A DNA stretch of 57,610 nucleotides, counting the filler, from Deltaproteobacteria bacterium (GTDB lineage: Bacteria; JAEEML01): NCBI GenBank assembly GCA_016283195.1. It is 3 parts of 3 records of this genome, joined end to end, with 100 filler letters (N's around TTAATTAATTAA, not from the genome) between each part and the next. Parts side by side here need not be neighbours in the genome. Positions count along the whole stretch, not along the records: positions 1 to 19,226 come from JAEEML010000137.1; 2 more parts are not named here. One strand, given 5' to 3'. The position numbers and the translations under genes were made by a program. The notes under the pieces are model-generated. The model did no database searches and had not been told where the DNA came from. It saw only the letters and a program-made list of their open reading frames with translations. Within the stretch, counting starts at the first letter, position 1; every line of letters begins with the position of its first letter. Below are positions 1 to 22,695 of this stretch, piece after piece.

Positions 1-806
1 CAGTACTTGGCGCCCGCTATGACCACCAAAAAGTCAAAATGACCGACTTTGAAGAAGCCAAAGACAAGGTGCTCATGGGCTCAGAACGCAAGAGCATGAT
101 TATCTCCGAAAAGGAGAAGATTAATACCGCTTATCACGAATCCGGCCATGCTATTGTGGCCAAACTTTTGCCCAATGCCGACCCAGTGCACAAGGTAACC
201 ATTATCCCGCGCGGGGCGGCTCTGGGCCTTACGCAGCAGCTGCCAACAGAAGATCGCTATAGCTATTCCGGCGACTATGCCCGCGATCAGCTGGTTATTC
301 TCCTGGGCGGCCGCGTGGCCGAAGAGCTGGTTTTAGGCGAGCAGACTACCGGAGCCGGCAACGATCTTAAACGGGCTACCGAGCTGGCCCGCAAGATGAT
401 TTGCGAATGGGGCATGAGCAAAAAGCTGGGCCCATTAACCTATGGGCAAAAAGAGGAAAGTCTCTTTTTGGGCCGCGATATTGCCCGCACCCAGGATTTT
501 TCCGAAGATACAGCCAAAATTATCGACGAAGAAGTGCGCCAGTTAATACTTGACGCCTATAACCGCGCCAAAGATCTTTTGACCGAAAATCGCGACCTCT
601 TGCGCCGTTTTGCCGAAGCTCTTTTAGAGTACGAAACCATCGATAGCGATGATATAAATACCCTAATGCAGGGCGGAAAATTAACGAGAAAACCGCCTAT
701 GCCCAAATTGCGTTCACCCGCTTCTTCAGCCGATAACGAAAAAAAGCCGCTTTTAGATTTGGGCGCTTTGCAACATCTGCCCGCCGGCCAGACTGCCGGT
801 ACCTAA
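1..806 (+). CDS. ftsH: ATP-dependent zinc metalloprotease FtsH, C-terminal part (5' truncated by window start)
   Basis: Peptidase M41 motifs AYHESGHA, VTIIPRG.ALG, GGRVAEE, GAGND; the frame is open upstream of the listed ATG at 39. Confidence 0.97.
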   Translation, partial: VLGARYDHQKVKMTDFEEAKDKVLMGSERKSMIISEKEKINTAYHESGHAIVAKLLPNADPVHKVTIIPRGAALGLTQQLPTEDRYSYSGDYARDQLVILLGGRVAEELVLGEQTTGAGNDLKRATELARKMICEWGMSKKLGPLTYGQKEESLFLGRDIARTQDFSEDTAKIIDEEVRQLILDAYNRAKDLLTENRDLLRRFAEALLEYETIDSDDINTLMQGGKLTRKPPMPKLRSPASSADNEKKPLLDLGALQHLPAGQTAGT

Positions 807-811
807 TTTAA

Positions 812-1834
812 ATGACTATAATATTACAGCTTTTTGCTTTACTTACTCTCCTTTCGTTTGTGGCCGGAGCTTTGGTACTGGGGGCTAAAAAAGCCCCAAA
901 ATATAGAACTATTGCTCTCCTTGCCGCTATTATTCTTGGCACTTTATATCTGCTGCTCCGCTGGATTTATGCCGGCCGACTGGAGCTCTCCCTGGCTATC
1001 AGCCAAAATCGCCTGGCTCCCGGTTTTTGGCCCTGGCTCAAAGTGGCTCTTAGTCACCCGCCCTTTACCAACCTTTTTGAAGTGCTTATTTCGCTTAGTT
1101 GGGCCCTCCTCATTTCGGCTCTGATTATTGAAAAACGCTATAAAATAAATCTCTTTGCTCCCTTGGCCTGTGCTGCGGCCATGCTGGCTCAGGGCGCGGC
1201 TTTTTGGGCGCTTGATAGCGCCATCGATCCTTTGGCTCCGGTGCTCAGATCCTGGTGGCTACACCTCCATGTGGCGGTTGCCGCTTTTAGTTATGCGGCA
1301 GCTATCGGGGCGGCGGTGAGCTCATTTCTGTATCTTTTAAAAGATGGTATTGCCCGCAAATGGCTCTATTTAAGCGCTATTTTGCTCAGCGCTTGCGGCG
1401 TTCTGGCCTTTGCTTTTGGCCAAAAACCTTGGAATATCATCTTTTTAATAAGTGCCCTGATAGTGAGCGCCATAATAGCTTGTGCCCTTATCTTTTATAA
1501 TAAAATAGGAAACTTAAATGTTTCTTTAACTGCTTTGCATACGCTTACCTCCCGTCTTGTCGCCCTTACTTTTATTACTCTGACGCTGGTTCTCGTTACC
1601 GGCTCCGTTTGGGCTCATTATTCCTGGGGCCGCTTTTGGAGCTGGGATCCCAAAGAAACCTGGACGCTCATTGCCTGGCTCTCCTATGCCGCTTACCTTT
1701 TTTTAAAAACGCGCCTTTCTCCCCGCCACCTCTCATATCTGGCTATGCTGGCTATTCTTATGGTTTTATTTGCCTTTTTGGGAGTTAACCTGGGCCTCTT
1801 CGGGGCCGGACTCCATGTTTACGGGCGCGGTTAG
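812..1834 (+). CDS. ccsA: Cytochrome c biogenesis protein CcsA/ResC (system II)
   Basis: WWD motif WGRFWSWDPKETW, conserved His in WLHLHV and GLHVYG, many TM helices. Confidence 0.9.
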   Translation: MTIILQLFALLTLLSFVAGALVLGAKKAPKYRTIALLAAIILGTLYLLLRWIYAGRLELSLAISQNRLAPGFWPWLKVALSHPPFTNLFEVLISLSWALLISALIIEKRYKINLFAPLACAAAMLAQGAAFWALDSAIDPLAPVLRSWWLHLHVAVAAFSYAAAIGAAVSSFLYLLKDGIARKWLYLSAILLSACGVLAFAFGQKPWNIIFLISALIVSAIIACALIFYNKIGNLNVSLTALHTLTSRLVALTFITLTLVLVTGSVWAHYSWGRFWSWDPKETWTLIAWLSYAAYLFLKTRLSPRHLSYLAMLAILMVLFAFLGVNLGLFGAGLHVYGRG

Positions 1835-2160
1835 TTGGTTTTGCGGATAATGGCTAATTTGGTTGGCTCACTGACCGTCAAATGATTGGCCAGGCGGTCA
1901 TACATTTTGCGGCCAACACCTTTGATGCGCATTAGTTCGCTGACTTTTCTAAATTCGCGCTTTTGGCGATACGCTATGATATCTTCCGCCTTTTTGGCAC
2001 CAATGCCCGGTAGTTGCATTAGCTCCAATTGACTGGCCGTATTGAGATTTATCACCCCCTGCATCACGGTATTATTAGAGGCTGCCAGAGCGTTTCCGCT
2101 ATTGATAAGCGCGCCGGCGCCTATGACTAAACCAAACAATAATGCTCTGAATTTATTCAT
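1831..2160 (-). CDS. comEA: ComEA-family helix-hairpin-helix DNA-binding protein
   Basis: Signal peptide, then INLNTAS..EL..LPGIG.KKA..II.YR and IKGVG HhH motifs; RBS AAGGAGG upstream. Confidence 0.92.
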   Translation of the reverse strand: MNKFRALLFGLVIGAGALINSGNALAASNNTVMQGVINLNTASQLELMQLPGIGAKKAEDIIAYRQKREFRKVSELMRIKGVGRKMYDRLANHLTVSEPTKLAIIRKTN

Positions 2161-2175
2161 AATATTCCTCCTTGC

Positions 2176-2415
2176 TCAGTCGATTTTTTTGCCGCTGCTA
2201 AGTTTTTCCGGGTCCAAATCGCGGATATGCAATTTAAAACTCTTGGGCGCCGCTTCCAGATAGACATTTAGCGACGCATCCTTGTTGACATAAGCGGTGC
2301 CCATGCGAATCCAAATCGGCTTGCCGTGACTGTTGCTGTCCACAATGGACCAAACACCCTTCATCTGCCCTTTGCCCTTGCTGCTGTTTTTGAATTCTTT
2401 TTTCATCTCTTCCAT
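2176..2415 (-). CDS. Small beta-rich hypothetical protein, possibly ssDNA-binding; first gene of the comEA operon
   Basis: Start reassigned to ATG 2415 because AAGGAG precedes it and the longer ORF start overlaps the sigma54 promoter; motif WIRMGTAYVNKDASLNVYLEAAP; 15 nt upstream of comEA on the same strand. Confidence 0.75.
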   Translation of the reverse strand: MEEMKKEFKNSSKGKGQMKGVWSIVDSNSHGKPIWIRMGTAYVNKDASLNVYLEAAPKSFKLHIRDLDPEKLSSGKKID

Positions 2416-2464
2416 GGCGTGCTCCTTTTTCCGCTCGCAGCGGTTATGTTCTGCCATGGATAAT

Positions 2465-2480
2465 TGCAAAAAGTGTGCCA
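2465..2480 (-). promoter_or_regulatory. sigma54 (RpoN) -24/-12 promoter
   Basis: Minus strand reads TGGCAC-ACTTT-TTGCA, a perfect TGGCAC-N5-TTGCW, 50 nt upstream of ATG 2415. Confidence 0.85.
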
Positions 2481-2546
2481 AGTGCCTTGAAAATAGACAT
2501 CTATATGAAATTATACAGTAAATGCTAAAAAGAACTGAGTTTTTCT

Positions 2547-2641
2547 AAAGTGTGCCAAAAGTGTGTCAGGTGTGTCAGAAGTGTATCAAAAGTGTGTCAG
2601 GTGTGTCAGAAGTGTATCAAAAGTGTGTCAGAAGTGTGTCA
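2547..2641. repeat. Tandem array of nine 9-11-bp GTGTGTCA-type units (candidate enhancer-binding-protein sites)
   Basis: Units aaagtgtgcca, aaagtgtgtca, ggtgtgtca, gaagtgtatca, aaagtgtgtca, ggtgtgtca, gaagtgtatca, aaagtgtgtca, gaagtgtgtca; includes an exact 31-bp duplication (2558-2588 / 2589-2619). Confidence 0.9.
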
Positions 2642-2666
2642 GGGAAGAGCAGCCGGTGGGAGATGA

Positions 2667-5600
2667 TTATTTATTTTTGGCTTCGATGGCTTTTTTGGTT
2701 TCATCGACAATGCCGGCCGCGCTCTTTTTGGTAACCGAGGCTTGGCCCTTGGCTTCCAGTTTAAAGCGCTCGGCTTTGTAATAAACATCAACAGCGTTGT
2801 TGTTTTCGCCGATTAAATTCAGGAAAGTGGCCATATTGATAAACATTTCATGTTCGTGCATCCGGCTTAATACCACGGCTGTAGGGCTGTGCTTGCGCCC
2901 GAATTTAGAGACGCCGTTAACCAGTTCTTTCATGGCTTCGGCGCTGTCGTTGCCACCTTTTTTAGCCCACTTGGCTTGGATTTTATCCATCTCGCGCATG
3001 AAGTTATTGGCATCGCTGATAAGGCCGATATCTTCAGCGATATCCCGGCCATCGGTTACAGCGGCATAATTTCTGGCATGCATGCGTTTAAAGGCGTCAT
3101 CATCGGAGTTTTCGTATTTAAGAATTGAGTAACTGGCCAAAAAGATCATGCAATCATCAGAACCGCTGCTGGGGCTTATTTTGTTGTATTCTTTAAGAAT
3201 TGCCTTGCGATCTTTTTCGGAGCGAGTTTCCCAGTACTTGGCTAAAAGTTTATAGCCCTTGGTAAGAGTGCCGATGGATACTTTGCTATCAGGATAGAGG
3301 TGTTTAAACTCTTTCTCGATCTTCTCTTTGGTGCTCTTAAGGAAAGCGCTGTCGTATTTTTTGGCCAGTTTTAAAGCCTGAGTATCCAGCGGCATAGCCC
3401 CGATAGCGGAGCGATTTTGCTCACCGGGAGGAATGGTCATATCTTCAAAAGCGGCCGTAGTCATTAAGAAAATTTCCCGATTTTTCATCGGTTGCCAATG
3501 CTTTAGCATTTCGGTGAAGGAGCTTAAAGAGCAGCCATATTGGATTTTGCCTTCTCCTTTGCCGTAACCGCTGATGACTTTGCTCTTGCCGTTTTCATCT
3601 CTCGTAATGGTTAAATTGAGTGATTTACAGAAGTTACGCCAATCCGCGGCTTCGTTCTTTTTGGTGGCTCTGTCTTTCATATCAAAAGAGCCTTGGAAGA
3701 AGACATCCACCAGCTCGTTTTTATCGCCGCTGGTTTTGTGCACGGCAAAGGCTTCCCAGTTAAAGGTAAAGCTCTCACCTTTGAAAATGGCATCTTTACC
3801 TTTTTTGGTATAATCTTTGCCATAAGAAGTGCAGGTGAGCAGCTCGCCGGTATCCAGGCGAATTTCAAAGTCGCTGTTGGTTTCTTTGAGCTCACTTTGC
3901 GATAAAAGCTCCAAAACAGAGAGTTTTAAATCGCCTTTTTTGATGGTTATAACGGAATTATCCACCTGTTTGGCTTTTAGCAAGTTAGCCTTCATGGCTG
4001 CTTCCGGTTTATAGAAGCGCACCAAACTGTTGAAGGCGGCCAAATGATCCGGGTTATCCATATTAAAGGGGCCGAAAGTAGCTTTTTCTTTATGCTCTTT
4101 GGCCACGCCGGCTTTGGCGCTAAAGGAGGCATTTAAGTACTCTTTAACCAATTTTTCAAGAGACTTGCAGGCCGCATCGCAGCCTTTTTTGCCGTATTTC
4201 TTGGTTAATTTACTGCCGCCTTCCAGCCAGTCGGTGATGGCGTTATATACACCAAATTCTTTTATCTCGGCACTGATGCCGACAGAAGCTTCCAGCCCCA
4301 TGGCAATAGAAGCTATATCTTCTTGCCAAAAGACTACTTCCGGGCCATTGGCGGTGATAGTAACTGTAGTGCCAAGTACTTTATTTTTTGAAGGATTAAT
4401 GGTGAAACCGGCTTTTAAGCTGGCGGTTAAGCCATCCATCAGCTTAACATCTTTGCCCACATTGGCTTCGCCTTTAATGGAAACGGCACCGGTACCGATA
4501 TGCGTCATGGTGGTGCCGACCGGCAGCTCTTTCCAAACGCTGTCATCGGTGATAGCGAGGCGCAGGGAGAGGGCGGTGGCATCGCCTATGGGGAGGGCGC
4601 CGTCGCCATCGGGAATGGAGATATCCACTTTTCTGGTGCCCAAAACATTCATACCGGCCGAAAGAGCGCCGATATTGCCGATATCCAGTTGGGCCAGCGG
4701 GAAGTCTTTATTGAGGCTAAAGAGGGAGCTAAAGTTATATTTGCCGTCTTTATGCTCGCGCCCGAGGTTAAAAGCCGCACCAAGCGGGGATTCAGTGGCA
4801 TCTACGCCCATCTGGACATTGGATTCGTTCTTCTTGATGAGCTTTTCTTTTTCTGGATTGCGCACATTTAAGGCGGCTATTGCTTCTAAAGCTTTTTCCG
4901 GAGCGCTGTTGTCGTTTATTTGCGCGAGACATTTATCGAGCGCCTTTTGGTGCTCCGGCTTAGAAGGATCAAGCTCATATACATAAATAGTGGTGGTGCT
5001 GTTTTTGAAATCGGCATTAAAGTTTATATCAACAGTTTCAATAACATCGGGGAATTTTACGCCGCTGGCGTTATCTGTTAAGCGGGTTTTGGTAACAGTG
5101 AGCGAGATGGTGCCGTTGTCATTATGTTTAAATTCCAGCTTATGCTCATTGTCCCAGCTGCCTTTAACCGAACCGCTGACAGCATTGTAAGCGCCGCTGC
5201 CGCCGACAGTGTGAACTTTTTTGCTGGTGACTCCGGCCAAATAGCCGGCATCGAGTGCCGGTTTCATGTTGCCCTGGCCGGCAGCGAGGAAGAGCTTGGC
5301 TTGCTTGGGATCGCTAAGATCAAACGGGCCGAAGGAGGTGGATACGGCTTTGTTGCGGCCGGTACTGGCGCTTATAGCCCGGTTTTTGAGACTCTTTTCA
5401 TCTACAATTTCTTTTAATTCTTTGGAAAGTTCGGCGTATTTTTTGTCGCCGAATTTCTTTTTCAGAGCTTTGCCGTCGTTTTGCAGATAATCGGCTACGG
5501 CATCGTAAATACCAAAGGAGGCAATATCTTCGGAGACCTTTAAATCGCTCGCTCTGGTGTGTTTAAAGGAGGCAGCTATATCTTCTTTGCGCTCCTGAAT

Positions 5601-8363
5601 AAGCGTTACAATAGGCCCTTTATCTGTTTGTTCGATATGCACAGTAGAGAGGTAATTGCCACTGGGATCGATAGTCCAAAGAGCTGCTTTTGTTGATTTT
5701 TCGGTAACTTTTTCCGCCGAATCTTTGTGGTTATTGGCGAGAGAAATACCGTGAGTAATATCGGTTGTTGTGCCCTTTGGAGCTGCCTTCCAGGCTTCCA
5801 ATTCCAAATTTGCCAGCTCATTGCTCAAAGTAACAACCCGGGTATTTTTTAATTCGGCACCGGGATCGGGCAGTTTTACTTTGGTAGAGACACTGTGGCC
5901 GGCTGTTAATTTGTCTTTGTCGCCTTCTTCGCCGCCTAAAGTGCCGGTGAGCTTTCTAAGGCCGCTCACAGTGTGCACATCATCTTTAAATTCATGGGCC
6001 AGTTGTAAATCGAGACCCAAGGGGCCTTCAGCCAGATTTACATCTATTTGGCCGGTAATAACCCGGTTTTTGGTTATTGTTTCCGCATCGGGATCGCGGA
6101 CTCCGAGGGCATCTATAGCGGAGAAATCAAGTTCAAAATCGCTGCTGTCGCCATAGCGATTGGCGATAGCCTTTTCCCAGGCCAGGCGGTGGGCCTCTTT
6201 GCTGAGGTCCATTTTGTAAATATTTACTTTGGTTACCCGGCCAGTGGTGCCGCCTTTAACTGCCAAATCTGAATTATCCAGATATTCACCGACAACATCA
6301 TTGCTTCTGGCGCCGGCAGATAATTCCTTAATAGTAGTATCGGTGACCGTGATGGTGAGTTTATCGCCGTCGCGATCCACTTTTACGGTGCGCTTGGTAT
6401 CTTTGCTTCTGGCAATATGGCTTTCGTGATTATCTATATCCAGCGAATGGGTGCGGCCTTTCTTGAGCCCGCCTGTTACCTCCTCCATGAGGCCGAGTTC
6501 CAAAGCCGGAGCCAGATTGAGATCGCCGGTCAGGCGATTAAAAGCATCTTTTTGTTTGGTATCGGCCAGAGCAAAGGGGCCAAAGGTGATTTCGTGCAAG
6601 CCTTCCAGTTCGCGGCCGGCAGAGAGGCGGATATTATAAGCCAGTTGCTCGCCGATAATAGTATCCAGTTCGGCTTTGATTTCGTCAAACTTGCCAGGAT
6701 ATTTGGCTTTTAGAGCTTTGCAATCGTCTTGCAAGTAATCTTCGATAGCTTCATAAAGGCCAAACTCTTTGACCTCGGTGGAAATATTATCGCTTGAAAT
6801 ATTGGTGGCTTTTATCTGGGCTAAAAGGGCCAATTTGTCCTGCTGGATAATTTTTACTTTCGGGCCGTCGGCTGTTTGCGTGACTTCAACGGTAATGGCC
6901 TGAGAGCCGCTGGGATCCAGTTGCCAAGCGCTGCTACCGGTGGTGGTAAGGCCGGCATCGCCGCCATAAGTAAGGGCGAGAGAAGCAGAGACCAAAGAGG
7001 TGAGCTTGGTGCCCTCCGGGGCAGTGCGCCAGGCTTCGGGTTTTAAGCGCGATAAATTAAAAGCCTGAGCCGAAGCTTGTTTTGGGGAAAGTTTGGCTTC
7101 TTTATCCGGCAAAACGAGAACATTGCTACGGGTGGCAGCCAGTTCTTTAAGGGAACTTTCGCCGTTGGCGGTTTTTAAATTAAGCAAACTGGAAATAGTG
7201 TATTTGCCGTCGTCATAAGTGCGGGAAATTTGCAGACCGCCGGCATTGGTACCGTATTCTGCCGAAATATCGAGCTTATCGGAAAATTTTCTCTTTTTGA
7301 TATCGCTGGCTTTGGCTTCATCGGCGCAGCCCAGATTTTTGAGCTCTTTGGTGCTGATACCGGGAATGAGCTTGTGCTTGCCGCCGGTCCAGGGCAGGGC
7401 TTTTTGCATAGCGGCCAGTTGTTTATCATCGTCTAAATTAACATTAAATACTTCGACTGTGGTGCGATCGAGAGATGAATCGCGCTTATAGGTGCCGGCA
7501 ATATTTTCCAAAAGTTCGCCGGTTTTTAAGTCGAGAGCGTGCTTATCTATACGTTGCTTTATAATAGTGAGCTGCACCTGACCGTCTTTGCCCCGCTCCA
7601 TGGTAACGGTGACTTTGGTGCGGCGATCTATTTCAGCGCTCTGATCTTCGGCCGAAAGAGCAATACCGCCGGCTAAAGTAAATGAGGCGGTAACCGCGGC
7701 ACCAAGAGGCAGTTCTTTGGCTCCTTTGGCGGTATAGGGGAGGTCTAAAGTAGTGGATTTTATGCGATCCCAAGTAGTTAAAAGCACCTGCTTGGTGGGC
7801 GTCTTTTTGGGATCTATGGCCATGGGCATTTGTACATCAATACCAATGCCGCCGATAATTTCACCGGATTTAATATAATCAACCGGAGTGGTGGCTGAGG
7901 CTTTCAGCTCCAGATTGATTTTGGAAGTGATGAGCATCGAGCCTTCGTGGGCTTCCATAAAGGCCTTTTGGTTGGCTGTAAGCCCCTTATCGAGGACTTC
8001 GAGATCCACATCGCCTTTTAAATCGAGCTTGTATTTTTCGGCTTCATCCAGCTTGAAAGTATTTTCAAAATCGGTCTTTATCTCGGTTTTGGTAAGGGGA
8101 AGAAGTTCTTTCATCCCCTTGTCCCACAAAGAAGCTATGGCGCTTTTCTTTTTTGGTTTGGCTGCTTTATCGGGTAGAGCTTTATCATCCGGGGTAGCTA
8201 CGGTTTTAGTTTCTCCGGCCGGAGCTGTTTCATACGCATCGCCGGCAGGCTTGGCAGCAGCTTTTGGAGCAGCTTTAGCGGCAGGCGCGGCTGCCGGTTT
8301 ATCATCGGTTTTAATTTCAGGATTATAGCCAATATTTCCCGCTGTACGAACTCCACTAACCAT
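2667..8363 (-). CDS. Giant (~1898 aa) hypothetical protein with three ~417-aa internal repeats; candidate secreted effector
   Basis: Long ORF; ATG 8363 has RBS AAAGGGAG; Ala/Pro/Lys-rich disordered N-terminus and no Sec signal; repeated motifs (E/S)FG(L/I/V)Y.A(I/V).D(Y/W)L and (T/S)FGPF about 1250 nt apart. Confidence 0.9.
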   Translation of the reverse strand: MVSGVRTAGNIGYNPEIKTDDKPAAAPAAKAAPKAAAKPAGDAYETAPAGETKTVATPDDKALPDKAAKPKKKSAIASLWDKGMKELLPLTKTEIKTDFENTFKLDEAEKYKLDLKGDVDLEVLDKGLTANQKAFMEAHEGSMLITSKINLELKASATTPVDYIKSGEIIGGIGIDVQMPMAIDPKKTPTKQVLLTTWDRIKSTTLDLPYTAKGAKELPLGAAVTASFTLAGGIALSAEDQSAEIDRRTKVTVTMERGKDGQVQLTIIKQRIDKHALDLKTGELLENIAGTYKRDSSLDRTTVEVFNVNLDDDKQLAAMQKALPWTGGKHKLIPGISTKELKNLGCADEAKASDIKKRKFSDKLDISAEYGTNAGGLQISRTYDDGKYTISSLLNLKTANGESSLKELAATRSNVLVLPDKEAKLSPKQASAQAFNLSRLKPEAWRTAPEGTKLTSLVSASLALTYGGDAGLTTTGSSAWQLDPSGSQAITVEVTQTADGPKVKIIQQDKLALLAQIKATNISSDNISTEVKEFGLYEAIEDYLQDDCKALKAKYPGKFDEIKAELDTIIGEQLAYNIRLSAGRELEGLHEITFGPFALADTKQKDAFNRLTGDLNLAPALELGLMEEVTGGLKKGRTHSLDIDNHESHIARSKDTKRTVKVDRDGDKLTITVTDTTIKELSAGARSNDVVGEYLDNSDLAVKGGTTGRVTKVNIYKMDLSKEAHRLAWEKAIANRYGDSSDFELDFSAIDALGVRDPDAETITKNRVITGQIDVNLAEGPLGLDLQLAHEFKDDVHTVSGLRKLTGTLGGEEGDKDKLTAGHSVSTKVKLPDPGAELKNTRVVTLSNELANLELEAWKAAPKGTTTDITHGISLANNHKDSAEKVTEKSTKAALWTIDPSGNYLSTVHIEQTDKGPIVTLIQERKEDIAASFKHTRASDLKVSEDIASFGIYDAVADYLQNDGKALKKKFGDKKYAELSKELKEIVDEKSLKNRAISASTGRNKAVSTSFGPFDLSDPKQAKLFLAAGQGNMKPALDAGYLAGVTSKKVHTVGGSGAYNAVSGSVKGSWDNEHKLEFKHNDNGTISLTVTKTRLTDNASGVKFPDVIETVDINFNADFKNSTTTIYVYELDPSKPEHQKALDKCLAQINDNSAPEKALEAIAALNVRNPEKEKLIKKNESNVQMGVDATESPLGAAFNLGREHKDGKYNFSSLFSLNKDFPLAQLDIGNIGALSAGMNVLGTRKVDISIPDGDGALPIGDATALSLRLAITDDSVWKELPVGTTMTHIGTGAVSIKGEANVGKDVKLMDGLTASLKAGFTINPSKNKVLGTTVTITANGPEVVFWQEDIASIAMGLEASVGISAEIKEFGVYNAITDWLEGGSKLTKKYGKKGCDAACKSLEKLVKEYLNASFSAKAGVAKEHKEKATFGPFNMDNPDHLAAFNSLVRFYKPEAAMKANLLKAKQVDNSVITIKKGDLKLSVLELLSQSELKETNSDFEIRLDTGELLTCTSYGKDYTKKGKDAIFKGESFTFNWEAFAVHKTSGDKNELVDVFFQGSFDMKDRATKKNEAADWRNFCKSLNLTITRDENGKSKVISGYGKGEGKIQYGCSLSSFTEMLKHWQPMKNREIFLMTTAAFEDMTIPPGEQNRSAIGAMPLDTQALKLAKKYDSAFLKSTKEKIEKEFKHLYPDSKVSIGTLTKGYKLLAKYWETRSEKDRKAILKEYNKISPSSGSDDCMIFLASYSILKYENSDDDAFKRMHARNYAAVTDGRDIAEDIGLISDANNFMREMDKIQAKWAKKGGNDSAEAMKELVNGVSKFGRKHSPTAVVLSRMHEHEMFINMATFLNLIGENNNAVDVYYKAERFKLEAKGQASVTKKSAAGIVDETKKAIEAKNK

Positions 8364-8398
8364 AGCATCTCCCTTTGGGCACAAAAAGGCCGAGGCTG

Positions 8399-8425
8399 TT
8401 ATCGGCTCTTTGCGTAAAAGGTTTA
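8399..8425 (-). promoter_or_regulatory. sigma28 (FliA/WhiG-family) promoter
   Basis: Minus strand TAAA (8425-8422), 15-nt spacer, GCCGATAA (8406-8399): exact sigma28 consensus, 36 nt upstream of ATG 8363. Confidence 0.85.
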
Positions 8426-8453
8426 CTTTTTTTTGCGGCTTTTGGCCAGTTTT

Positions 8454-10763
8454 TTATGCCTTGTCCAAGAGCCACTGTGGCAGGAGCGGTGAGGGATTAG
8501 GGCCGGAAAGACACCAAAGCTGGTGGGCGGCTCTCGTGAGCCCCACATGGAGAAAGTGGCGGGAAAAATCATCTTCCGGATAGGTATCGCTATTAACTTC
8601 CACTAAAATTACATAATCAAATTCGAGACCTTTGACCTGGCGGATTTCCGTAACATCAATGCCGGGACTAAAGGAAAAGTCTTCTCTTGCCACCAGGCGC
8701 AGTTTGGGCACTTCGGCTTTTTTTAGTGCGGCATAATATGTTTGGGCCTGCGGACTATGGCGGGCAATAATCGCTACACTGGCCATCGGCTCGCGCATCA
8801 TAAGGCCGCGCAGGGCGCCGGCCAAAAAATCTATGGCCTGGCCGGTGTCGGAAAAGCGATGCAATTCCACCGGGGCCCCATGGCGCGTGGCTTTTAACTG
8901 TTTGGGCGCACTTGCCCCCAAAACGGCCTGAGCTACTTCCATAATTTCGGCTGTTGAGCGGTAGGCCACAGCCAGTTGCTCCATGGTAACATCGCGCCCG
9001 CCCAGCTCGCGCAAAAATGGTTCCCAGCCTTTAAAGGAGCTTTCGGCAATAATAGCCTGGGCATCATCGCCGGCCAGGGTAATGGTGGCATCTTTAGCTG
9101 TGGAGCGCAGCATAACCCGCACTTCAAAAGGCGAAAAATCCTGCACTTCGTCCACCATCAGGTGGTTATATTCCATTTTGCCGCCTACTCCCGGCAGGCG
9201 CCCCACATTATGCTGATAAAGAGCCAGTAATATTGTGTTATCTTCCTGGTCGATGGCGGCCATATCCTCTTCATCAGTCTCTTCGGCCAGGGAATTGGCT
9301 TCTTCCACCAGGCGGGCATAGAGCTCTCTGTTCCAAGAGGCGATATTTTCAAAATCTTCGGCGGTAAATTCATCGGGAGCATATTGGGCCGAGAGATTTT
9401 TCAATTTTTGCGGTGAGGTAATAATATCGGCCCAGTCTTGAATAAGCCGCCGTTCGCCGTAAGGATAGCGTTCCAAAATATTTATGGCCGCGCCGATTAT
9501 TTGTGTGGGCAGATTTTTTAAATCGGGCACATTTTTGTGCTCGCGCCGGCCTTGCATAATCTCAATTAAGAGCTGGCGGCGCTGCTCATAGGGCAGGCGT
9601 TCCAAATTTTGCCAGCCGTTTATAATAGCCCGGCCGCCGTTATTATTCCCAAAGGCCCGCTCGAATTCTGCGGTAACCGTAGCGCTGCGCTCCTTTTCCA
9701 GAGCTACAATATATTTTATAATCAGCGGATGGCGTTTTAGGCGGGAGACGGCCGGCGGGGTGTCGCTGTTATAGCGGTCCGGCAGGCTTTTGGTGATGCG
9801 CTTTCGGGCCGCGTGGGCCCAGTCATGGTAGGTGGAAACTTTAATATTTTTTATGCCGAGTGCTGGTAAAACTTGCGAAGTATAAAGAGCCAGCGCTTTG
9901 TTGCCCACAATCACCAAAACTTTATCCGGCGTATAGCGCTTTTTATCGGCAAAGAGCAAATAAGCCACGCGGTGCAAAGCTACAGTGGTTTTGCCGCTAC
10001 CGGCGCTGCCGCGCACTACCAGAATGCCCGGCTCGTTATTGGTAATCAGGCCAAATTGGTTTTTATCAATAAGAGCCGATATTTCCGGCAAATGGTAATT
10101 GAGGCGCGGACGGCCGTCGGCGCCGATGCCCAAAATGGAGAGGCCCTGCGGGCGCACGGCTGTTCCCTGGCCGCCGGAGAGTTCTATGCTTTCCGGAGTG
10201 AGATTTTGCCAGCCGTCTTTTTTCTTTAAGAGAGTGATTCCCGAGGAAGCTATGCGCTTTAACTCGCCGGATTCTATACTTAAAGAGCGCCTTTTTATAA
10301 CTACGCCCTCTTTTGTTCTGTCGGCTACTTCTTCTTCGTAATCGTCGCCTTCGTCATAGCAGTAGTAAATTTTACTTACCGGGGCATTGCGCCAATCGAC
10401 AATTTTTATGCCAGATTCGGCATCTAAAAAGGTGTGCTTGCCGATGAGTACATCATGAAAGCGCCCCTCTTCTTTTAAGCGCAAATGGCCAAAATAGGGA
10501 TTTTGCGGATCAATAGGGATACTGGCTCCGCGCCCTCTTTGGGCGGCAATGGCCTGCAGGCGGGCCATCTGTTCCAAAAGCTGCGGCTGATCTTCCTCGC
10601 GCGCCTCGGCGAGAGCATCGCGCACAGTAATAAGGGCATCGTTGTAATCAACCATCTGGCCGTTATGTTCTTTGGGGGCTGTCAGGCGCTTAACCACTTT
10701 GCTGAGCAGGGCTTCTTCTTCGGTTATTATCTCCTTTGCTGCTTGAGATAAAGTAGCGCTCAC
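8454..10763 (-). CDS. helD: HelD/HelR-like UvrD-family (SF1) ATPase, RNA polymerase recycling motor
   Basis: N-terminal PYFG..., IG, IVDWRNAPVSKIYY; Walker A GSAGSGKTT then VALHRVAYLL; DEVQD; YRST; KGLEFD; TRA. Confidence 0.75.
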   Translation of the reverse strand: MSATLSQAAKEIITEEEALLSKVVKRLTAPKEHNGQMVDYNDALITVRDALAEAREEDQPQLLEQMARLQAIAAQRGRGASIPIDPQNPYFGHLRLKEEGRFHDVLIGKHTFLDAESGIKIVDWRNAPVSKIYYCYDEGDDYEEEVADRTKEGVVIKRRSLSIESGELKRIASSGITLLKKKDGWQNLTPESIELSGGQGTAVRPQGLSILGIGADGRPRLNYHLPEISALIDKNQFGLITNNEPGILVVRGSAGSGKTTVALHRVAYLLFADKKRYTPDKVLVIVGNKALALYTSQVLPALGIKNIKVSTYHDWAHAARKRITKSLPDRYNSDTPPAVSRLKRHPLIIKYIVALEKERSATVTAEFERAFGNNNGGRAIINGWQNLERLPYEQRRQLLIEIMQGRREHKNVPDLKNLPTQIIGAAINILERYPYGERRLIQDWADIITSPQKLKNLSAQYAPDEFTAEDFENIASWNRELYARLVEEANSLAEETDEEDMAAIDQEDNTILLALYQHNVGRLPGVGGKMEYNHLMVDEVQDFSPFEVRVMLRSTAKDATITLAGDDAQAIIAESSFKGWEPFLRELGGRDVTMEQLAVAYRSTAEIMEVAQAVLGASAPKQLKATRHGAPVELHRFSDTGQAIDFLAGALRGLMMREPMASVAIIARHSPQAQTYYAALKKAEVPKLRLVAREDFSFSPGIDVTEIRQVKGLEFDYVILVEVNSDTYPEDDFSRHFLHVGLTRAAHQLWCLSGPNPSPLLPQWLLDKA

Positions 10764-11019
10764 GCTAAACTCCTATAAAAGCGGGGAAAAATCCCCTAGA
10801 AGGAAAAGAATTAGCACGGCGCAATAGTTAGGGCAAGAGGAAAGCTGGAAAAATTGCGAAGATTTTCTGCCAGTTTGTTCTACCAACAAGTAGTACTAAA
10901 TTTATAGCTGCTACCAATAGCCAGTAGATTATTTTAGGTAATATTTCCATGGTGATTTAACTCTTTAACCAACAATATTTTGCCAATTGTGAATTCCGGA
11001 ATATAAGGTAACAATCAAG

Positions 11020-11619
11020 CTACAGGTCGTGCCTAAATTTCAGCGCGGCACCCAGAGTGGCGCTATCCACATATTCCAAGTAGCCGCCGCGCGGCAGGCC
11101 GCTCGCCAGGCGGGTGACTTTATTGACATAAGGCGCAGCCAGGCGGGCAATATAAAGGGCCGTTGTTTCGCCGCCGGTATCGGTATTGGTGGCAATGATG
11201 AGCTCGCTAACCTGGCCTTTTTCCAGCCTTTTTATCAAGCTGTCAATGGTTAGCGCCTCCGGACCCACGCCGTCTATCGGTGAGATGGCGCCGTGGAGCA
11301 CATGAAAGAGGCCGCGATAAAAATGGCTACGCTCAATAGCCAGCATATCCTGCACCTGCTCCACTACGCAAATGGTGCTTTTATCGCGCGATTCATCCTG
11401 GCAAATGGGGCAAAGATCGGCAGTAGTAAAAGTTTGGCACTCCTGGCAGCGGCGCACGTTATTTAAAACATCGCTAATAGCTGCCGAAAGTTCCAGCCCC
11501 TTTTCCGGCTGGCTGCGCAGGAGATGGTAAGTGAGCCTAAGGGCGCTTTTTTCGCCGATTCCCGGCAAAGTGCCAAAGGCTTTAACCAGCCGTTCAATGG
11601 GATCTTTTTGCAAAGTCAT
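11020..11619 (-). CDS. recR: Recombination mediator RecR
   Basis: LPGIGEKSA HhH, C4 zinc finger CQEC...CPIC, Toprim ICVVE, LHGAISPIDG. Confidence 0.97.
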   Translation of the reverse strand: MTLQKDPIERLVKAFGTLPGIGEKSALRLTYHLLRSQPEKGLELSAAISDVLNNVRRCQECQTFTTADLCPICQDESRDKSTICVVEQVQDMLAIERSHFYRGLFHVLHGAISPIDGVGPEALTIDSLIKRLEKGQVSELIIATNTDTGGETTALYIARLAAPYVNKVTRLASGLPRGGYLEYVDSATLGAALKFRHDL

Positions 11620-11621
11620 TA

Positions 11622-13562
11622 TTATTCCTCGGTGGAGAGGAAGGTGACGCCCAGCGCCTCGGCCTGGCGGGCTTTTTTGATAAAAGCTAAAAATTCGCCG
11701 TATTCTTCACTCTCGATGATGGGTTTTTTAATGACAAAACGGCGCTCAAAGCGGAAATATTTGCCGTCTTTTTTGTAATAAGAAGAGTATTCGCCGTATC
11801 CCGGAGCAAATAGATCAACCGGCAATGGCTGATCAACCTCATAGCCCACCGGGAGCTCAATCGAAAGCTTCATCTCCCACACAAGCGGGCCGCCGGTGGC
11901 CAGCTGGTAGCGCCTTTTATCTTTCCACAGATGGTGGTAAAGCTCGCCGGTAATTTGGTCGGCAGCAAATTTATATTCTTGATATTTAAGCTCTTTCATC
12001 GAGGCTTTGCAAGCGCCGGTAACGCGAATTGGAGCCGAGAGATTCTTTAAATCGGCCACTTCCCAGTTGGAAATATCCATGCTGGTGCCGCTATCGGCAA
12101 ATGCGGCCAAAAGGGCCTTTTTCTGCTCACTCTTGTTTTTAGAAAGAGCTTCGCGCAGCAGGCGGGCGGCCTCACCCTCGGCTTTCAAATTAAAAAAGCC
12201 CTCCAGTTCGCCGGTATTTTTAAGACGCATTTTAATATCAATAGCGCTACTGTTTTGTTCCGGCGTTGATAGCGGAAGATTAATAAATTCCGCATGTTCT
12301 TCATCTTTTATTAAAAGGCCTGCGCCGCCTTGTAACTCCCTTGGCAAAGTGGCAAAGCCGCATTTGGGGCAGCCCGGATCGAGGAAAGAATAGTCGGCCG
12401 CTCCGCCCTGTTTTTTTACGGCCACCACCACATGGGCAAAGGGGACCAAAGAGGGCATATCAATATTTATGAGCCGGCCGCCCGGCTTTATCACCAAAAC
12501 CGGGTAGGCTTCCAGGCCGCGTACTTTGAGAATGGCGGCGAAAAAAGCGGCCAAATCGCGTACGGAAGCCGGTTTCTTCTGCCCGATTTCGTTATAATCC
12601 ACCGGCCCGGCTTCCCAGATATATTCGGTGCTGACCGGTACCGCCTGCTCTTGTAACCAGCTGTAAAGAGCCGTTTCCGATTGTTCTCTGGAAATCCAAT
12701 CATGGGCAGTGTTGAGCTCGGTAAGGTGTTTGGTCTCTTTGAGATACCAGGCGCCTACATCCTCCCATTTGCGCATGATATCGCCGCTTTGTGCGCCGCT
12801 TTCTTTGGCCCGCACGCCCTGGAAAACCGGGGATACCCAAGCTCTAAGGCGCTGCAAATCGGGCATATTTTCTTCCGGATACAGCGGCGGTAAATCATTT
12901 TTTACCCACAAAAGGCGTTGCTGATTCTTTTCCAAATCGCGGCGGATAGGCTGTTCATCGGAGATAAATTGGCCGGTGCCGGAGCGGATATCCAAAAGAA
13001 TATCCGGTGTGGTGATAATGGCAAACTCGGCTCTTTTCACCGGCAGTTCGCTGCCCATGTTCCAGGTTGGAATATAACGGGCATCGTCAAAAGTGCGCAC
13101 ATATTGAAATTCTACCACCGCTCCCACTTCGGGGCCGGAAATTCTGGCAATAACCCGCCCCAGTTCCGGGCGAACAAGGCCCGGTTGATGCTGAATTTCA
13201 TTGCCGGCGAGCGCTTTTTCGCGCCCATCTGGATAGACAATGCGCCCGGAGAGACTAGTAATATTGCTGTGTGCAGAGGTGGGTAAAACAATGGTGGCAT
13301 AGCTAAAACCGCGCTCATTAAGAATCTTGTAACGCCGGTGGTGGGTGAGTACTGCCTGTGCACCATTTTTGCCATTCTGTGTCTTATAGGTTAAAGTAGC
13401 ATTATCCAGCAGCACCACTGCTGGCATATCCGGATAGTCATCGGCCTTGGGCATGGTGGCAAAATGAACTGGAGGAAAGCTAGACATGGTTCCGGCACAG
13501 GCATTTACGCCAAGTATGAAAGCGCCTAACACGGCGGATTTAAAGTATTTTGGAATATTCAT
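11622..13562 (-). CDS. DUF3857 / transglutaminase-like domain lipoprotein
   Basis: Lipobox VNAC after start at 13562 (RBS GGAG); DUF3857-like N-terminus (KILNERG, GAVVEFQY); TGase-like core (FAHVVVAV, FLDP); beta-rich C-terminus. Confidence 0.78.
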   Translation of the reverse strand: MNIPKYFKSAVLGAFILGVNACAGTMSSFPPVHFATMPKADDYPDMPAVVLLDNATLTYKTQNGKNGAQAVLTHHRRYKILNERGFSYATIVLPTSAHSNITSLSGRIVYPDGREKALAGNEIQHQPGLVRPELGRVIARISGPEVGAVVEFQYVRTFDDARYIPTWNMGSELPVKRAEFAIITTPDILLDIRSGTGQFISDEQPIRRDLEKNQQRLLWVKNDLPPLYPEENMPDLQRLRAWVSPVFQGVRAKESGAQSGDIMRKWEDVGAWYLKETKHLTELNTAHDWISREQSETALYSWLQEQAVPVSTEYIWEAGPVDYNEIGQKKPASVRDLAAFFAAILKVRGLEAYPVLVIKPGGRLINIDMPSLVPFAHVVVAVKKQGGAADYSFLDPGCPKCGFATLPRELQGGAGLLIKDEEHAEFINLPLSTPEQNSSAIDIKMRLKNTGELEGFFNLKAEGEAARLLREALSKNKSEQKKALLAAFADSGTSMDISNWEVADLKNLSAPIRVTGACKASMKELKYQEYKFAADQITGELYHHLWKDKRRYQLATGGPLVWEMKLSIELPVGYEVDQPLPVDLFAPGYGEYSSYYKKDGKYFRFERRFVIKKPIIESEEYGEFLAFIKKARQAEALGVTFLSTEE

Positions 13563-13619
13563 ATTAACTCCTGCGGCCAATTTTTTGCCAAGCCGTCAAT
13601 TTACTCATAGCATAAAACC

Positions 13620-14369
13620 ATGAGAACGAGAACTTTACAATCTGCCTCCTCATTAGTCAAAGCCTTCTTCCTGATTTTACCGGCTCTTTTTGGGGCTTCG
13701 TGCCAGGGAGGTGTGGCTCTTTCTCCAACTTTAAGCGGTGGCCTTTGGAACAGCGCTTTTATGGCTACAACATCGCCCAACGGTGCCAGGTTTACCAGTT
13801 GGCGCGAAGAACGCCAAAAGCGCAATAGAGCTGCTGCGCTGGAACAACTGGCCAGCAGTGAGTGTGCCCCGGAGAAGATAATAAAAACCGCCGCCGCCTA
13901 TAAAAACAGCGTGCCGCCGGAGAGTGAATTCGGCCGCAGCAGCCTGGATTTTATCAAAGGCGTTTATGAAAAAAGCTGTATGCCGCTTTTGCAACCCTTG
14001 CCAGGTTCGGAATATCAAGCAGCTTTGCCCGAAGGCCCCAGTCCCGGCTCGATTGTAATTCTCGGCAAGGGTGATAAGCGAGTGGCCGCTCTGGTGGAAA
14101 AATGCGATGCCGCCGGCACTTGCCAGCTTTTGGTGCGTTTGCCTGATAAAGTCCATGTGCTTAAATTTAATGCTCTTTATCCGAATGCCTATCGCAATAA
14201 AGGCGGAGAAGTTATCAATAGTCTCTTGAAATTACCCGGTAGCCAGCAAATTGCGACAGCCGGTGAATTATTGCTTGAAGCACATCAGGCTTATGATAAA
14301 AATAGTAAGGCGCCCGCAGAAACCGCCGGCGGAAATGCCGGAGCGGTAGCTTTTAACGATAATGATTAA
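13620..14369 (+). CDS. Hypothetical lipoprotein
   Basis: 249-aa ORF with signal peptide and lipobox-like GASC; divergent from the DUF3857 gene. Confidence 0.65.
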   Translation: MRTRTLQSASSLVKAFFLILPALFGASCQGGVALSPTLSGGLWNSAFMATTSPNGARFTSWREERQKRNRAAALEQLASSECAPEKIIKTAAAYKNSVPPESEFGRSSLDFIKGVYEKSCMPLLQPLPGSEYQAALPEGPSPGSIVILGKGDKRVAALVEKCDAAGTCQLLVRLPDKVHVLKFNALYPNAYRNKGGEVINSLLKLPGSQQIATAGELLLEAHQAYDKNSKAPAETAGGNAGAVAFNDND

Positions 14370-14418
14370 AGAAACGGTGTAGCCCCGGAGTGGGCCGCTG
14401 TTTTGTGTAGGACCGCCG

Positions 14419-15813
14419 ATGATACGTTTTTCCATTCATCTTGATCCGGAAAATAATATCACAAGGGTGAAGAGTTTTCCCGAAGGGCCGGAGCCTATTC
14501 TCATCGGCCGTGATAAAGATTGCCAGCTAAGGCTTCGTAATAATTCTGTTTCCCGGCACCATTGCCGCCTGGAGTTTTTTAATAATAATTATATTGTCGA
14601 AGACCTGGCCTCCACCCAGGGGACGCGCCTCAACGGCGAACCTTTAACGCCGCGTGTTTCGGTGCCGGTGCATCATGGCGATATTTTGCAAGTCGGCGAA
14701 CTTTCTATGCTTATTGCCATTTTGGAGGAGCCGGAATCGGCAGAGCAACTATCTAATGCCGCCCATCAGGCGGTGAGTAATCTTTTGGGCAAGTTTTTGC
14801 AAAGTCCTTCTTCGGATACTACCGCTTATTTAAAAATATTAAATGGTGATGACGAAGGGCTGAAATTTCTTCTTACAGATAAAAATTCCTGGAATATCGG
14901 CCGCCTGGAAGATAATGACTTTGTTATCCATGCCAGCTCAATCTCCCGGCAGCATGCCAGAATAACTTTGGATAGCGGCTCATATTATTTGCAAGATTTG
15001 GGCTCCACCAGCGGTACCACGGTAAATGGTGCCAATATCACCGGGCCCTATCATTTGGTGCATCTCGACCGCCTGACTTTCGGCGCGGTGAAGGTTATTT
15101 TCTTTGATCCCTCACAGGAACTTCTTTCGGCTCTTGAATATGTTGAGCAGGCCAGCGAATCCAGTGAGACTAAAGCCCTTAATATTAAAGAAAATGCCAC
15201 AGTTCCGCCGCATAATTCACCGGATGCTAAAGATGCTACCAACCCGGCATTTACTGAGCAAACCGCCGAAAATGAAGTCACCAGTCCCGGTACTGAGCCG
15301 GAGATTAGTGCTGACGCGGTAGCTAATGCTTTGGCCGAATCCACAGCGCAGGATTTTTCCGCTCAGCCGGAGCAAGAAGAGGCCGAGGAGGCTGAGGAGG
15401 GCGAAGAAGACGAAGAAATTGAGGAGGTTCCGCCGGCACCGGTGATTCCTGCGCCGGTTATGAGTGAAGCCACCGTCTCGGCTCGTTCTGTGCGTCATCA
15501 GCGCCGTGGTAGTGATAGAGGCGCTACCAAAGGGCATAATAACTTGGCCGGACAGCCGGCGCCGGTAAACGATGAGGATTCCTTGGGTGATGATTCAGAA
15601 GTAGATGATGATTTTTCTATAGATGAAGATATTCCTTCTGCTCCGCCGGTGGTTTCCGTTCCTTCCCAAGGGCCGGTAAAGACCAATGTCACCGCGCCAA
15701 CTATTGTGCGCAAAAAACGGCGGCGCTTGCCGGTTATGCCCATTGCTCTCATGCTTCTCTGCCTGACTGTAATGGTGTGCTGTCTCATCTTTTTTATTCT
15801 TAATAATACCTGA
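14419..15813 (+). CDS. Tandem FHA-domain membrane protein with acidic linker
   Basis: Two FHA signatures (IGR...VSRHH...DLASTQGT; IGR...ISRQHA...DLGSTSGTTVNG), Glu/Asp-rich region, C-terminal TM after KKRRR. Confidence 0.88.
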   Translation: MIRFSIHLDPENNITRVKSFPEGPEPILIGRDKDCQLRLRNNSVSRHHCRLEFFNNNYIVEDLASTQGTRLNGEPLTPRVSVPVHHGDILQVGELSMLIAILEEPESAEQLSNAAHQAVSNLLGKFLQSPSSDTTAYLKILNGDDEGLKFLLTDKNSWNIGRLEDNDFVIHASSISRQHARITLDSGSYYLQDLGSTSGTTVNGANITGPYHLVHLDRLTFGAVKVIFFDPSQELLSALEYVEQASESSETKALNIKENATVPPHNSPDAKDATNPAFTEQTAENEVTSPGTEPEISADAVANALAESTAQDFSAQPEQEEAEEAEEGEEDEEIEEVPPAPVIPAPVMSEATVSARSVRHQRRGSDRGATKGHNNLAGQPAPVNDEDSLGDDSEVDDDFSIDEDIPSAPPVVSVPSQGPVKTNVTAPTIVRKKRRRLPVMPIALMLLCLTVMVCCLIFFILNNT

Positions 15814-15892
15814 AAGCGGAGTTTAAAGAGCGCGTTTTTAACGCTTTTTTCGGCACCAATCTTTAAAGGCACTAGGTCTTCTATTTTTTTTA

Positions 15893-15921
15893 TTGACAAA
15901 TAATTTTAACCTCTTTATAAA
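15893..15921 (+). promoter_or_regulatory. sigma70 promoter of the tRNA-Met pair
   Basis: TTGACA-N17-TATAAA immediately upstream of the tRNAs. Confidence 0.8.
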
Positions 15922-15935
15922 GGCTCTGCTCTTGT

Positions 15936-16012
15936 GGCGATGTAGCCCAGCTGGTGAGAGCATGCGGCTCATACCCGCAGTGTCGAGGGTTCGATTCCCC
16001 CCATCGCCACCA
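15936..16012 (+). tRNA. tRNA-Met (CAT), elongator type
   Basis: Cloverleaf GGCGATG...CATCGCC-ACCA, anticodon loop CTCATAC, T-loop GTTCGATTC. Confidence 0.93.
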
Positions 16013-16017
16013 TCCGT

Positions 16018-16094
<77 letters not shown>

Positions 16095-16101
16095 ACCTTT
16101 T

Positions 16102-17211: not shown

Positions 17212-17633
17212 TAGCGCCTCTTAAAGCTATGGCCACAAATAGGGGGCTCATTCTCGTTAAAGCGGATATCTCTTAAAATAAGGTGATTTTCGCTGACTTC
17301 ATAGCGGCCGCTTAGGTTAAGGTTGGGCTTTGCTGTGCCTTTGGTAATGGTAAAACTGATTTTAGCGGCAAAATCGCTGGCTCCGTCGGCTGCCGGCTCG
17401 GCGGTATATGTGCCCTTATAAACCAGTTGGCCATCGGTAAAACTTAAAGCAAAATCGCCGTTTTCGTTAAAGCGCAGCATGGAAATCGGGCGACTTGTTT
17501 CTATTTGCTGATAACTTTGGCAGGAGAGGCTTTTTTCTTCCTGCCAGCGCCCTACCAGGCGGCTATCGTCCGGACTGCAGGCGAAAATGGCCAAAGCAGG
17601 TAAAAAAGCCACAAATACTCTAAGATAAAACAT
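17211..17633 (-). CDS. Hypothetical lipoprotein (lipocalin-like beta-barrel candidate)
   Basis: Start reassigned to ATG 17633 (RBS GGAG); lipobox IFAC; LVGRW motif; stop overlaps the radical SAM start. Confidence 0.7.
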   Translation of the reverse strand: MFYLRVFVAFLPALAIFACSPDDSRLVGRWQEEKSLSCQSYQQIETSRPISMLRFNENGDFALSFTDGQLVYKGTYTAEPAADGASDFAAKISFTITKGTAKPNLNLSGRYEVSENHLILRDIRFNENEPPICGHSFKRR

Positions 17634-17830
17634 ATAAACTCCGTAGATAATTTGGTGCCCGTTTTCTATTTGCCGCTTTATGGCGGCTAAATAGCCAAGA
17701 GCCGGGACAATAATACTAGCAGGCGGCCGCTTTTGGCAAATCATCTTGGAATTTTTTGTACCAGGTTGCGCTATTTGAGGCGCTGGAAGGGGGAAAGAAA
17801 TGTGCTATACTGTCGTGAGGAGGTAGTGCA

Positions 17831-18519: not shown

Positions 18520-18628
18520 CCGCCTTATTGATGCGTATCCCACTTTAACCGGCGGCTATTTTTTGTTAAAAAGAGTGTGCCTCGTGTTTGGGCACCTAAG
18601 TAACTTTGCCGGATAAAGGGCTATTTTA

Positions 18629-22649: not shown

Positions 22650-22695
22650 ACGGGGCAGTATTGATCGATCTCTCGTCGATCTAAGGAGCTTACCT

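Follow-up and report, generated by a model that had tools for sequence, protein, structure and literature searches.

A 1,898-residue signal-less protein as a candidate type III substrate of a bacterium lacking flagellar genes

We analysed a DNA stretch of 57,610 nucleotides (the window), in which three contigs of an uncultured bacterium are joined by N (positions 1-19226, 19327-40122 and 40223-57610). The gene in question lies on the first contig and encodes a protein of 1,898 amino acids (aa), here called the giant. On balance, we lean towards the giant being a substrate of the genome's own non-flagellar, Myxococcota-type type III secretion system (T3SS), a reading built on sequence comparison. 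A sigma28-type regulon feeding a type III gate, an arrangement known from flagella, is probably present here, although the genome has no flagellar genes and its apparatus is of the Myxococcota kind. The source genome has 3.22 Mb in 190 contigs and was rated 100% complete, with 4.18% contamination. The DNA runs containing the stretch were animal-gut metagenomes, and the run search listed no RNA runs.

The giant gene and its N-terminus

The open frame of the giant spans 2667-8384 on the minus strand and, from the ATG at 8363, gives 1,898 aa, in agreement with the preliminary description. Short contigs of low depth were available from four DNA runs. Among the in-frame substitutions listed for contigs of a related strain, 32 of 37 fell on third codon positions, showing that the gene is real and under purifying selection. 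A UvrD-like helicase gene has its stop at 8454, and the 90-nt gap from there to the giant's ATG holds the promoter motif described below.

The protein starts with MVSGVRTAGNIGYNPEIKTDDKP (MVSGVRTAGNIGYNPEIK) and continues with the disordered Ala/Pro/Lys tract reported previously, which closes in GDAYE at residues 41-45. The start is polar and uncharged, with the first acidic residue at position 16, and has neither Sec nor Tat features. No hydrophobic signal-like stretch was found, the best 19-residue Kyte-Doolittle window scoring 1.62 (residue 218). The Pfam scan gave only DUF569 at E=0.22, with no flagellin or other domain, the NCBIfam scan only rodZ at 15 bits, and the PDB sequence search had zero matches at E<=1. 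In these searches the giant kept its earlier description as a protein with no Sec/Tat signal and no flagellin domain.

Just 3' of the giant's stop there is a tandem array (window 2548-2642), which can be read as a 31-nt unit repeated three times or as the 11-nt unit AAGTGTGTCAG repeated nine times. Contigs of other runs had deletions of 11 and 22 nt in this array, and therefore its copy number differs between strains.

A start peptide and an N-terminal module

A common start of several large signal-less proteins was spotted among the genes behind CCGATAA. Described as M-[VIS]-[SG]-[SAGI]-[IVSG]-[GNSRF]-[STGQNI], it matched 15 of 14,022 candidate starts, the giant included, against 4.5 expected, and 14 of the 15 were ATG codons with a ribosome site. 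Among 1,788 genes, 40 had the start motif and 13 had D-[STAI]-[LFIY]-E-[KTS] within residues 21-100. The two motifs co-occurred in eight proteins (0.29 expected), always with the D at residue 40-48; in the giant this is D42-A-Y-E. The earlier proposal that promoter-linked genes share the N-terminus and a D-x-(F/Y)-E motif is retained with changes: the start peptide is strongly enriched among genes with a sigma28-like -10 (see below), and D-x-[LFIY]-E stands at residue 40-48 in these eight proteins. The giant's own link to the family is modest.

Ten proteins, the giant among them, align over ~100 residues, with M1, D42 and P64 invariant. A profile of this N-terminal module (N-module) recovered exactly its ten seeds from the own genome (positive control 10/10). 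We propose residues 1-100 of the giant as an export or chaperone-binding signal. Seven N-module members (C150, C55, C4, C64) also have P-x-PDP-x-L-x-x-D-x-DN as a tail at the very C-terminus, possibly a further signal for sorting or processing.

Similar starts were found beside chaperone genes. Contig C57 (13939-17001) encodes a 1,020-aa protein of five LcrH/SycD units (TIGR02552, 256.6 bits). The products of the five genes that follow it start with MSVGSFNSS, MSISGISNS, MVSAVGSS, MVSSINSN and MVGSVGSS. Three hydrophobic segments occur in one of these products and a single segment in two, and one product has a weak SseD match. The 1,020-aa protein also holds an SctY-like stretch and heads the operon of these five translocator-like genes. 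We know of no precedent for such a fused multi-chaperone.

Six other proteins (268-619 aa; C130:29119-34050, C13:1864-5120, C94:3973-4779) end in ...SN.xK.L.DTA.A.I..IG, a needle-protein-like C-terminus, and all but one of them begin in a similar way. The needle-family matches are weak, with E=3.5e-5 for PF09392 and E=0.0017 for TIGR02105, neither of which reaches its cut-off. These six may be filament or needle-extension subunits, in a system class described as needleless.

The promoter match and its -10 element

The exact TAAA-N15-GCCGATAA ahead of the giant, on which the preliminary description had based its sigma28 promoter, was recovered at 8425-8399 on the minus strand. It is the only one in the window, for which shuffles expect 0.04 (at least one match in 4/100 shuffles). 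The motif is intergenic, and the giant's ATG follows 35 nt past its last A, instead of the 36 nt given previously. The CCGATAA heptamer within it begins 42 nt ahead of the ATG. In other genes, the heptamer was found at -42 (C57_10936 and C161), -45 (C64), -44 (C140) and -38 (C27), and the -10 class lies at -38 to -53 in five other start-motif genes.

Genome-wide, [GC]CGATA[AT] was present at -65 to -30 of the start codon in 6 of 13 start-motif genes versus 37 of the other 1,761 genes (Fisher p=2.1e-7), a statistical association between start peptide and -10 element. Several of the 37 others also start alike (the C31 pair, C16, C140, C141 and C61). The usual box of the family, TAGCA[AC]C-N14-16-[GC][CT]GATA[AT], occurs eight times in the genome. 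Six of these boxes precede genes, and all six downstream products have a family-like start (scrambled control: 0). The giant's AAC-N15-CCGATAA agrees in spacing with TAGCAAC-N15-[GC]CGATAA of the family.

Because of the association between -10 element and start peptide, the shared spacing and the shared -42 position, we consider the site to be probably a real promoter, overlapping a terminator, and the giant's promoter to be probably functional. From the sigma28 regulon proposed earlier, it is this looser -10 element ahead of start-motif genes that was enriched, and not the canonical motif.

Sigma factor and type III apparatus

The genome encodes a 235-aa sigma factor (C153:11399-12106) whose best family is FliA/WhiG, with 150.8 bits under a cut-off of 189.6. 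A sigma28-family factor, which the preliminary description had called for, is hence present as a FliA/WhiG-like protein, without reaching the family threshold. Out of 301 Myxococcota genomes sampled, 181, one of them unpublished, have homologues of it with 40-54% identity. The check for flagellar genes that had been suggested came back empty: Flagellin_N (PF00669) and Flg_bb_rod (PF00460) had zero matches in the genome, as did the FlgM family.

A type III export apparatus was found, as anticipated. The sole FHIPEP gene is SctV (TIGR01399, 835.8 bits, cut-off 692); against the FlhA model it reached 691.6 bits with a cut-off of 772, and is therefore not FlhA. SctU and SctR genes are present. A lipoprotein SctJ gene is followed by a FliG_C-like gene and then by FliH/SctL. 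SctQ is of the FliM/FliN type and also matches FliM, an SctP-like gene gave a weak match, and an SctN fragment at a contig end scored 373.5 bits over model positions 197-438. Three secretins were recognized: PilQ, GspD and one with no assigned family. Among the 120 matches listed, SctV is 75-84% identical to SctV of metagenome-assembled genomes (MAGs) labelled Myxococcota, Myxococcales or Deltaproteobacteria. In sequence, SctV and several families resemble those of Myxococcota. The LcrH/SycD gene at 22615-23181, named earlier as lying on another contig than the giant, passes its NCBIfam cut-off and belongs to the genome's type III system.

The FliG_C-like gene (C141:31155-32204; PF01706, 27.5 bits, above cut-off) has the SctJ gene on one side and FliH/SctL on the other. 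With it and the FliM-matching SctQ, this genome has parts resembling a flagellar switch but no flagellar genes.

Contrary evidence and alternative explanations

A number of observations weigh against the giant being a type III substrate under a sigma28-type promoter, and they touch the promoter, the start peptide and the apparatus. The genome has 792 copies of GCCGATAA, from which 6.6 canonical 12-letter motifs are expected. Nine were found, eight of them in coding DNA, and only the giant has one in intergenic DNA. When 1,438 upstream regions were scanned, 100 sites in the forward and 94 in the reverse orientation agreed with the motif in at least 10 letters of 12, and there was one exact match in each orientation. 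On the canonical-motif counts alone, the perfect match could be chance. In addition, the giant has AAAC at its -35 where the family box has GCAAC. A regulon defined by the canonical TAAA-N15-GCCGATAA was rejected on the observed versus expected number and on the similar forward and reverse counts.

The -10 element also overlaps a hairpin of -15.7 kcal/mol (z=-3.71), a stability that none of 200 shuffles reached. The same letters are possibly the terminator of the helicase gene, because GCCGA of the -10 forms the hairpin's 5' arm and a T run comes after the hairpin. The hairpin letters alone could account for the -10. The promoter match would then be a by-product of the helicase's intrinsic terminator, with GCCGA as stem arm, TAA as loop and TAAA in the A-rich spacer, and the giant, transcribed by read-through or from another promoter, might still be secreted. 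The stability of the hairpin and its T run speak for this explanation, as do the commonness of the octamer GCCGATAA, with the full motif no commoner than expected, and the even number of exact matches in the two directions. It does not account for the heptamer lying at -42, a position shared with C57_10936 and C161 and close to that in C64, C140 and C27, nor for the AAC-N15 spacing of the family promoter. Moreover, a background of 2.1% combined with the rare N-terminal similarity leads to ~0.04 genes by chance. We judge the terminator explanation to be unlikely, if still a serious competitor.

With regard to the start peptide, two positions of the regular expressions were widened after the giant's sequence had been seen (R at position 6, and T after D-A-Y-E). 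Against a leave-one-out hidden Markov model (HMM) of the module the giant had a weak match (E=0.047, 12.1 bits), the second among non-seed proteins, and with a matrix from the five C57 operon proteins alone it was outside the top 40 genes. Judged from these sequence scores, the giant's own link to the start-peptide family is modest. The N-module profile had zero matches in the 301 sampled Myxococcota genomes. With regard to the apparatus, the sigma factor scores below its family cut-off and the genome search for FlgM was negative. None of the three secretins reaches the SctC cut-off, and thus no dedicated SctC marks a route across the outer membrane.

Several of these points would also fit the N-module as the mark of a lineage-specific paralogous family, whose members take another route or remain intracellular, the module being an anchoring, assembly or regulatory domain with no type III link. 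The ten members are all from the own genome, and seven of them are paralogues, rather than independent signal carriers, because they have the common C-terminal tail. Next to module members, no gene for a class I chaperone was recognized, and the lack of a dedicated SctC points the same way. However, the first seven residues recur on otherwise unrelated translocator-like and needle-like proteins beside LcrH/SycD chaperones, none of which has a Sec-type hydrophobic signal. The composition of these starts, rich in Ser/Asn/Gly/Ile and free of acidic residues over at least the first 12 positions, is that of type III signals. A purely paralogous family is, in our estimate, improbable.

Protein body, relatives and predicted fold

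The body of the giant has three repeats of ~415 residues, 27-28% identical, and then a C-terminal part of ~450 residues. An exhaustive HMMER search with residues 699-1898 against 1.84 billion representatives gave seven matches at E<=0.001. These were a 302-aa metagenome fragment, 70% identical to the C-terminal region, a 156-aa fragment, and five proteins of 636-1,251 aa with 21-26% identity. Where named, the matches were hypothetical proteins of Myxococcota MAGs, and the alignment of the relatives covers a single repeat together with the C-terminal part. A profile of the relatives matched 8 of the 301 Myxococcota genomes, three of them strongly. The neighbourhoods of three Myxococcota homologues were housekeeping-like, with nothing type III-like in the open reading frame calls and N-terminal translations, the only data used for them.

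Other searches found less. The word-indexed search with the giant protein or its profile returned the giant itself alone, the profile version missing known relatives too. The locus search with the profile had 131 pattern matches, of which 0 were confirmed. The giant was in none of the 60 genomes nearest in the collection (0/60), all 60 being related at the domain level only. The collection had no close kin of the genome, though its SctV was up to 84% identical to metagenomic sequences.

AlphaFold2 modelling of residues 1036-1898 from 12 sequences gave a predicted local distance difference test score (pLDDT) of 78.2 and a predicted template-modelling (TM) score, pTM, of 0.60. The model has runs of antiparallel strands, 10-25 residues long, with helical inserts, and then a helical domain. 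Its best Foldseek match was the 36-strand barrel of SprA (E=3.8e-4, TM 0.20/0.10). With fair confidence, the giant body is predicted to fold into a beta sheet of very large size, either curved or barrel-like. The helical domain alone (pLDDT 74.8) had no Foldseek match at E<=0.001, and its best VIA Z was 6.5. The top language-model neighbours belonged to the 'Awr type III effector family', with 0.84 and 0.83 for a tool threshold of 0.9 and a low recognition value (1124). As far as the model goes, the fold search points to no function for the giant body.

A further possibility is that the giant is an outer-membrane beta-barrel of the producer, porin- or translocon-like, which reaches the periplasm by an unconventional route and is inserted by BAM. 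Among the VIA neighbours listed for the model, 50/50 were membrane beta-barrels (Z 7.3-10.6), and the SprA match is of this type as well. Yet these likenesses come with a root-mean-square deviation (rmsd) of ~10 A and TM-scores of 0.1-0.2, the model was built on 12 sequences, and the giant has no signal peptide. On the Kyte-Doolittle scale, the mean for the more hydrophobic of the two faces of the predicted strands is just 0.62, and Lys, Glu and Asn are abundant in many of them. Strands as polar as those modelled do not suit a barrel that faces lipid. An outer-membrane barrel is thus very unlikely. The membrane-barrel reading of the fold likeness was not accepted, given the polar strands, the rmsd and the TM-scores.

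Proposed mechanism

If the giant is a type III substrate, the FliA/WhiG-like sigma factor would read the TAAAC-N15-CCGATAA promoter 35 nt ahead of its ATG. A transcript from this promoter would, we infer, be without the 5' arm of the hairpin. The first ~100 residues, with MVSGV, the Ala/Pro/Lys linker, D-x-Y-E at 42 and L-P, would stay uncleaved and serve as a module for export or chaperone binding. The exported body would comprise the three ~415-aa beta-rich repeats and the helical end domain. From the predicted fold, our guess is that the body could be an envelope- or membrane-associated scaffold, or a pore-like factor, outside the cytoplasm.

In its fullest form, the proposal is that a flagellum-less Myxococcota-type system kept the logic of flagellar late genes. 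A FliA-like sigma factor would control a regulon of two dozen or more start-peptide substrates, ten of which, the giant included, carry the ~100-aa module with Asp42, and the giant would be exported and would build a huge barrel-like sheet in or on a target or the own envelope. We offer this complete scenario tentatively, and doubt that every part of it will hold.

Comparison with known systems

The needleless T3SS*, or 'Myxo' class, of Myxococcus xanthus is described in the portions of PMC12075869 and PMC3459982 used here as having no needle, translocon or secretin, with effectors that are only 'potential'. In the same portions, the delivery route of the Myxococcota-type system is debated. 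The genome analysed here resembles this system in its SctV, 75-84% identical to that of Myxococcota-labelled MAGs, in having no dedicated SctC and in having no flagellar genes. It differs in its LcrH/SycD chaperones and its translocator-like and weakly needle-like proteins. In addition, it originates from animal-gut metagenomes, and its N-module was not found in the 301 sampled Myxococcota genomes.

In flagellated bacteria, the sigma28 late regulon feeds the flagellar type III gate, and Campylobacter jejuni exports non-flagellar proteins too (PMC2764114, PMC5223770, in the parts drawn on). As in the FliA late regulon covered there, a promoter of the TAAA-N15-GCCGATAA type precedes proteins with an N-terminal type III signal, which here are candidate substrates. 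In contrast to it, no flagellin, rod or FlgM was found, the sigma factor is below its cut-off, and the usual -35 is TAGCAAC.

Chlamydia, which is not flagellated, has a sigma28 together with a non-flagellar T3SS whose genes are scattered. The present genome is alike in having a FliA-family sigma factor beside a dispersed injectisome-type system, whereas its SctV groups with Myxococcota sequences. To our knowledge, the chlamydial sigma28 regulon has not been linked to a conserved export peptide. For Chlamydia, sigma54 has been treated together with T3S effectors in the part of PMC7482065 consulted.

The HrpL regulon is alike in that an alternative-sigma box and N-terminal rules jointly mark effectors. 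HrpL of Pseudomonas syringae is an extracytoplasmic function sigma factor with a different box, and its effectors share N-terminal composition only. The proteins described here differ in having a conserved start peptide and, at a set place near residue 42, a second motif. The giant further resembles the Ralstonia AWR (RipA) effectors in being large (AWR ~1,000-1,100 aa) and signal-less, and in the language-model score of 0.84. This score is below 0.9 and no AWR family was among the Pfam or NCBIfam matches, making the likeness a lead only.

Type III signals are noted for their lack of a conserved sequence. A sequence-conserved type III signal would, if true, be unusual, because such signals usually have none. 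A FliA-type regulon without a flagellum would, if true, bear on the origin of injectisomes from flagella. The genome yields a list of candidates that can be recognized by the start peptide, by the D-x-[LFIY]-E motif at its set position and by the promoter box, with putative substrates ranging from translocator-like proteins to the 1,898-aa giant. The literature on the Myxococcota-type system, as far as the portion of PMC12075869 used here extends, names no substrate, only 'potential' effectors.

Features of the window

The coordinates of the giant gene, its parts and its upstream region, and of the chaperone gene on another contig, are given in Table 1.

Table 1 Features related to the giant and to type III secretion in the window.
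Feature	Position	Strand	Basis or remark
Coding sequence of the 1,898-aa protein	2667-8363	-	Stop codon 2667-2669; frame translation and strain-difference codon bias
Ribosome-binding site GGGAG, 5 nt ahead of the ATG	8369-8373	-	Read off the sequence
Sigma28-type match: TAAA (8425-8422), 15-nt spacer, GCCGATAA (8406-8399)	8399-8425	-	Motif search of the window
Hairpin of ~13 pairs, then CUUUUUGU	8380-8414	-	Terminator-like; directly 3' of the UvrD-like helicase gene, overlaps the -10
N-terminal module, residues 1-100 (proposed signal)	8064-8363	-	MVSGV start, Ala/Pro/Lys linker, D42-A-Y-E, L-P 63-64, SLWDKG near 88
Internal repeat 1, residues ~205-620	6504-7751	-	First of the three ~415-residue repeats
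Internal repeat 2, residues ~621-1035	5259-6503	-	28% identical to repeat 1
Internal repeat 3, residues ~1036-1450	4014-5258	-	27% identical to repeat 1; long antiparallel beta strands and helical inserts predicted
C-terminal region, residues ~1451-1898	2670-4013	-	Beta strands, then all-helical domain ~2670-3566 (predicted)
LcrH/SycD-family type III chaperone gene	22615-23181	+	TIGR02552, 117.1 bits, cut-off 104.8; other contig than the giant

On the giant's contig, positions 14419-15813 encode a 464-aa protein with two FHA domains and a match to the SctD/YscD cytoplasmic domain (PF16697, 104.8 bits); against the full SctD model it reached only E=0.0018. Two loci for PfaA-type polyunsaturated fatty acid or polyketide synthases were found, one in the window (43475-51178) and one on contig C57 (18559-32897), the latter with PfaD adjoining. 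The ends of contig C188 seem to truncate a RecD2-type helicase gene (window 19279-20376) and a type I restriction HsdR gene (39000-40178).

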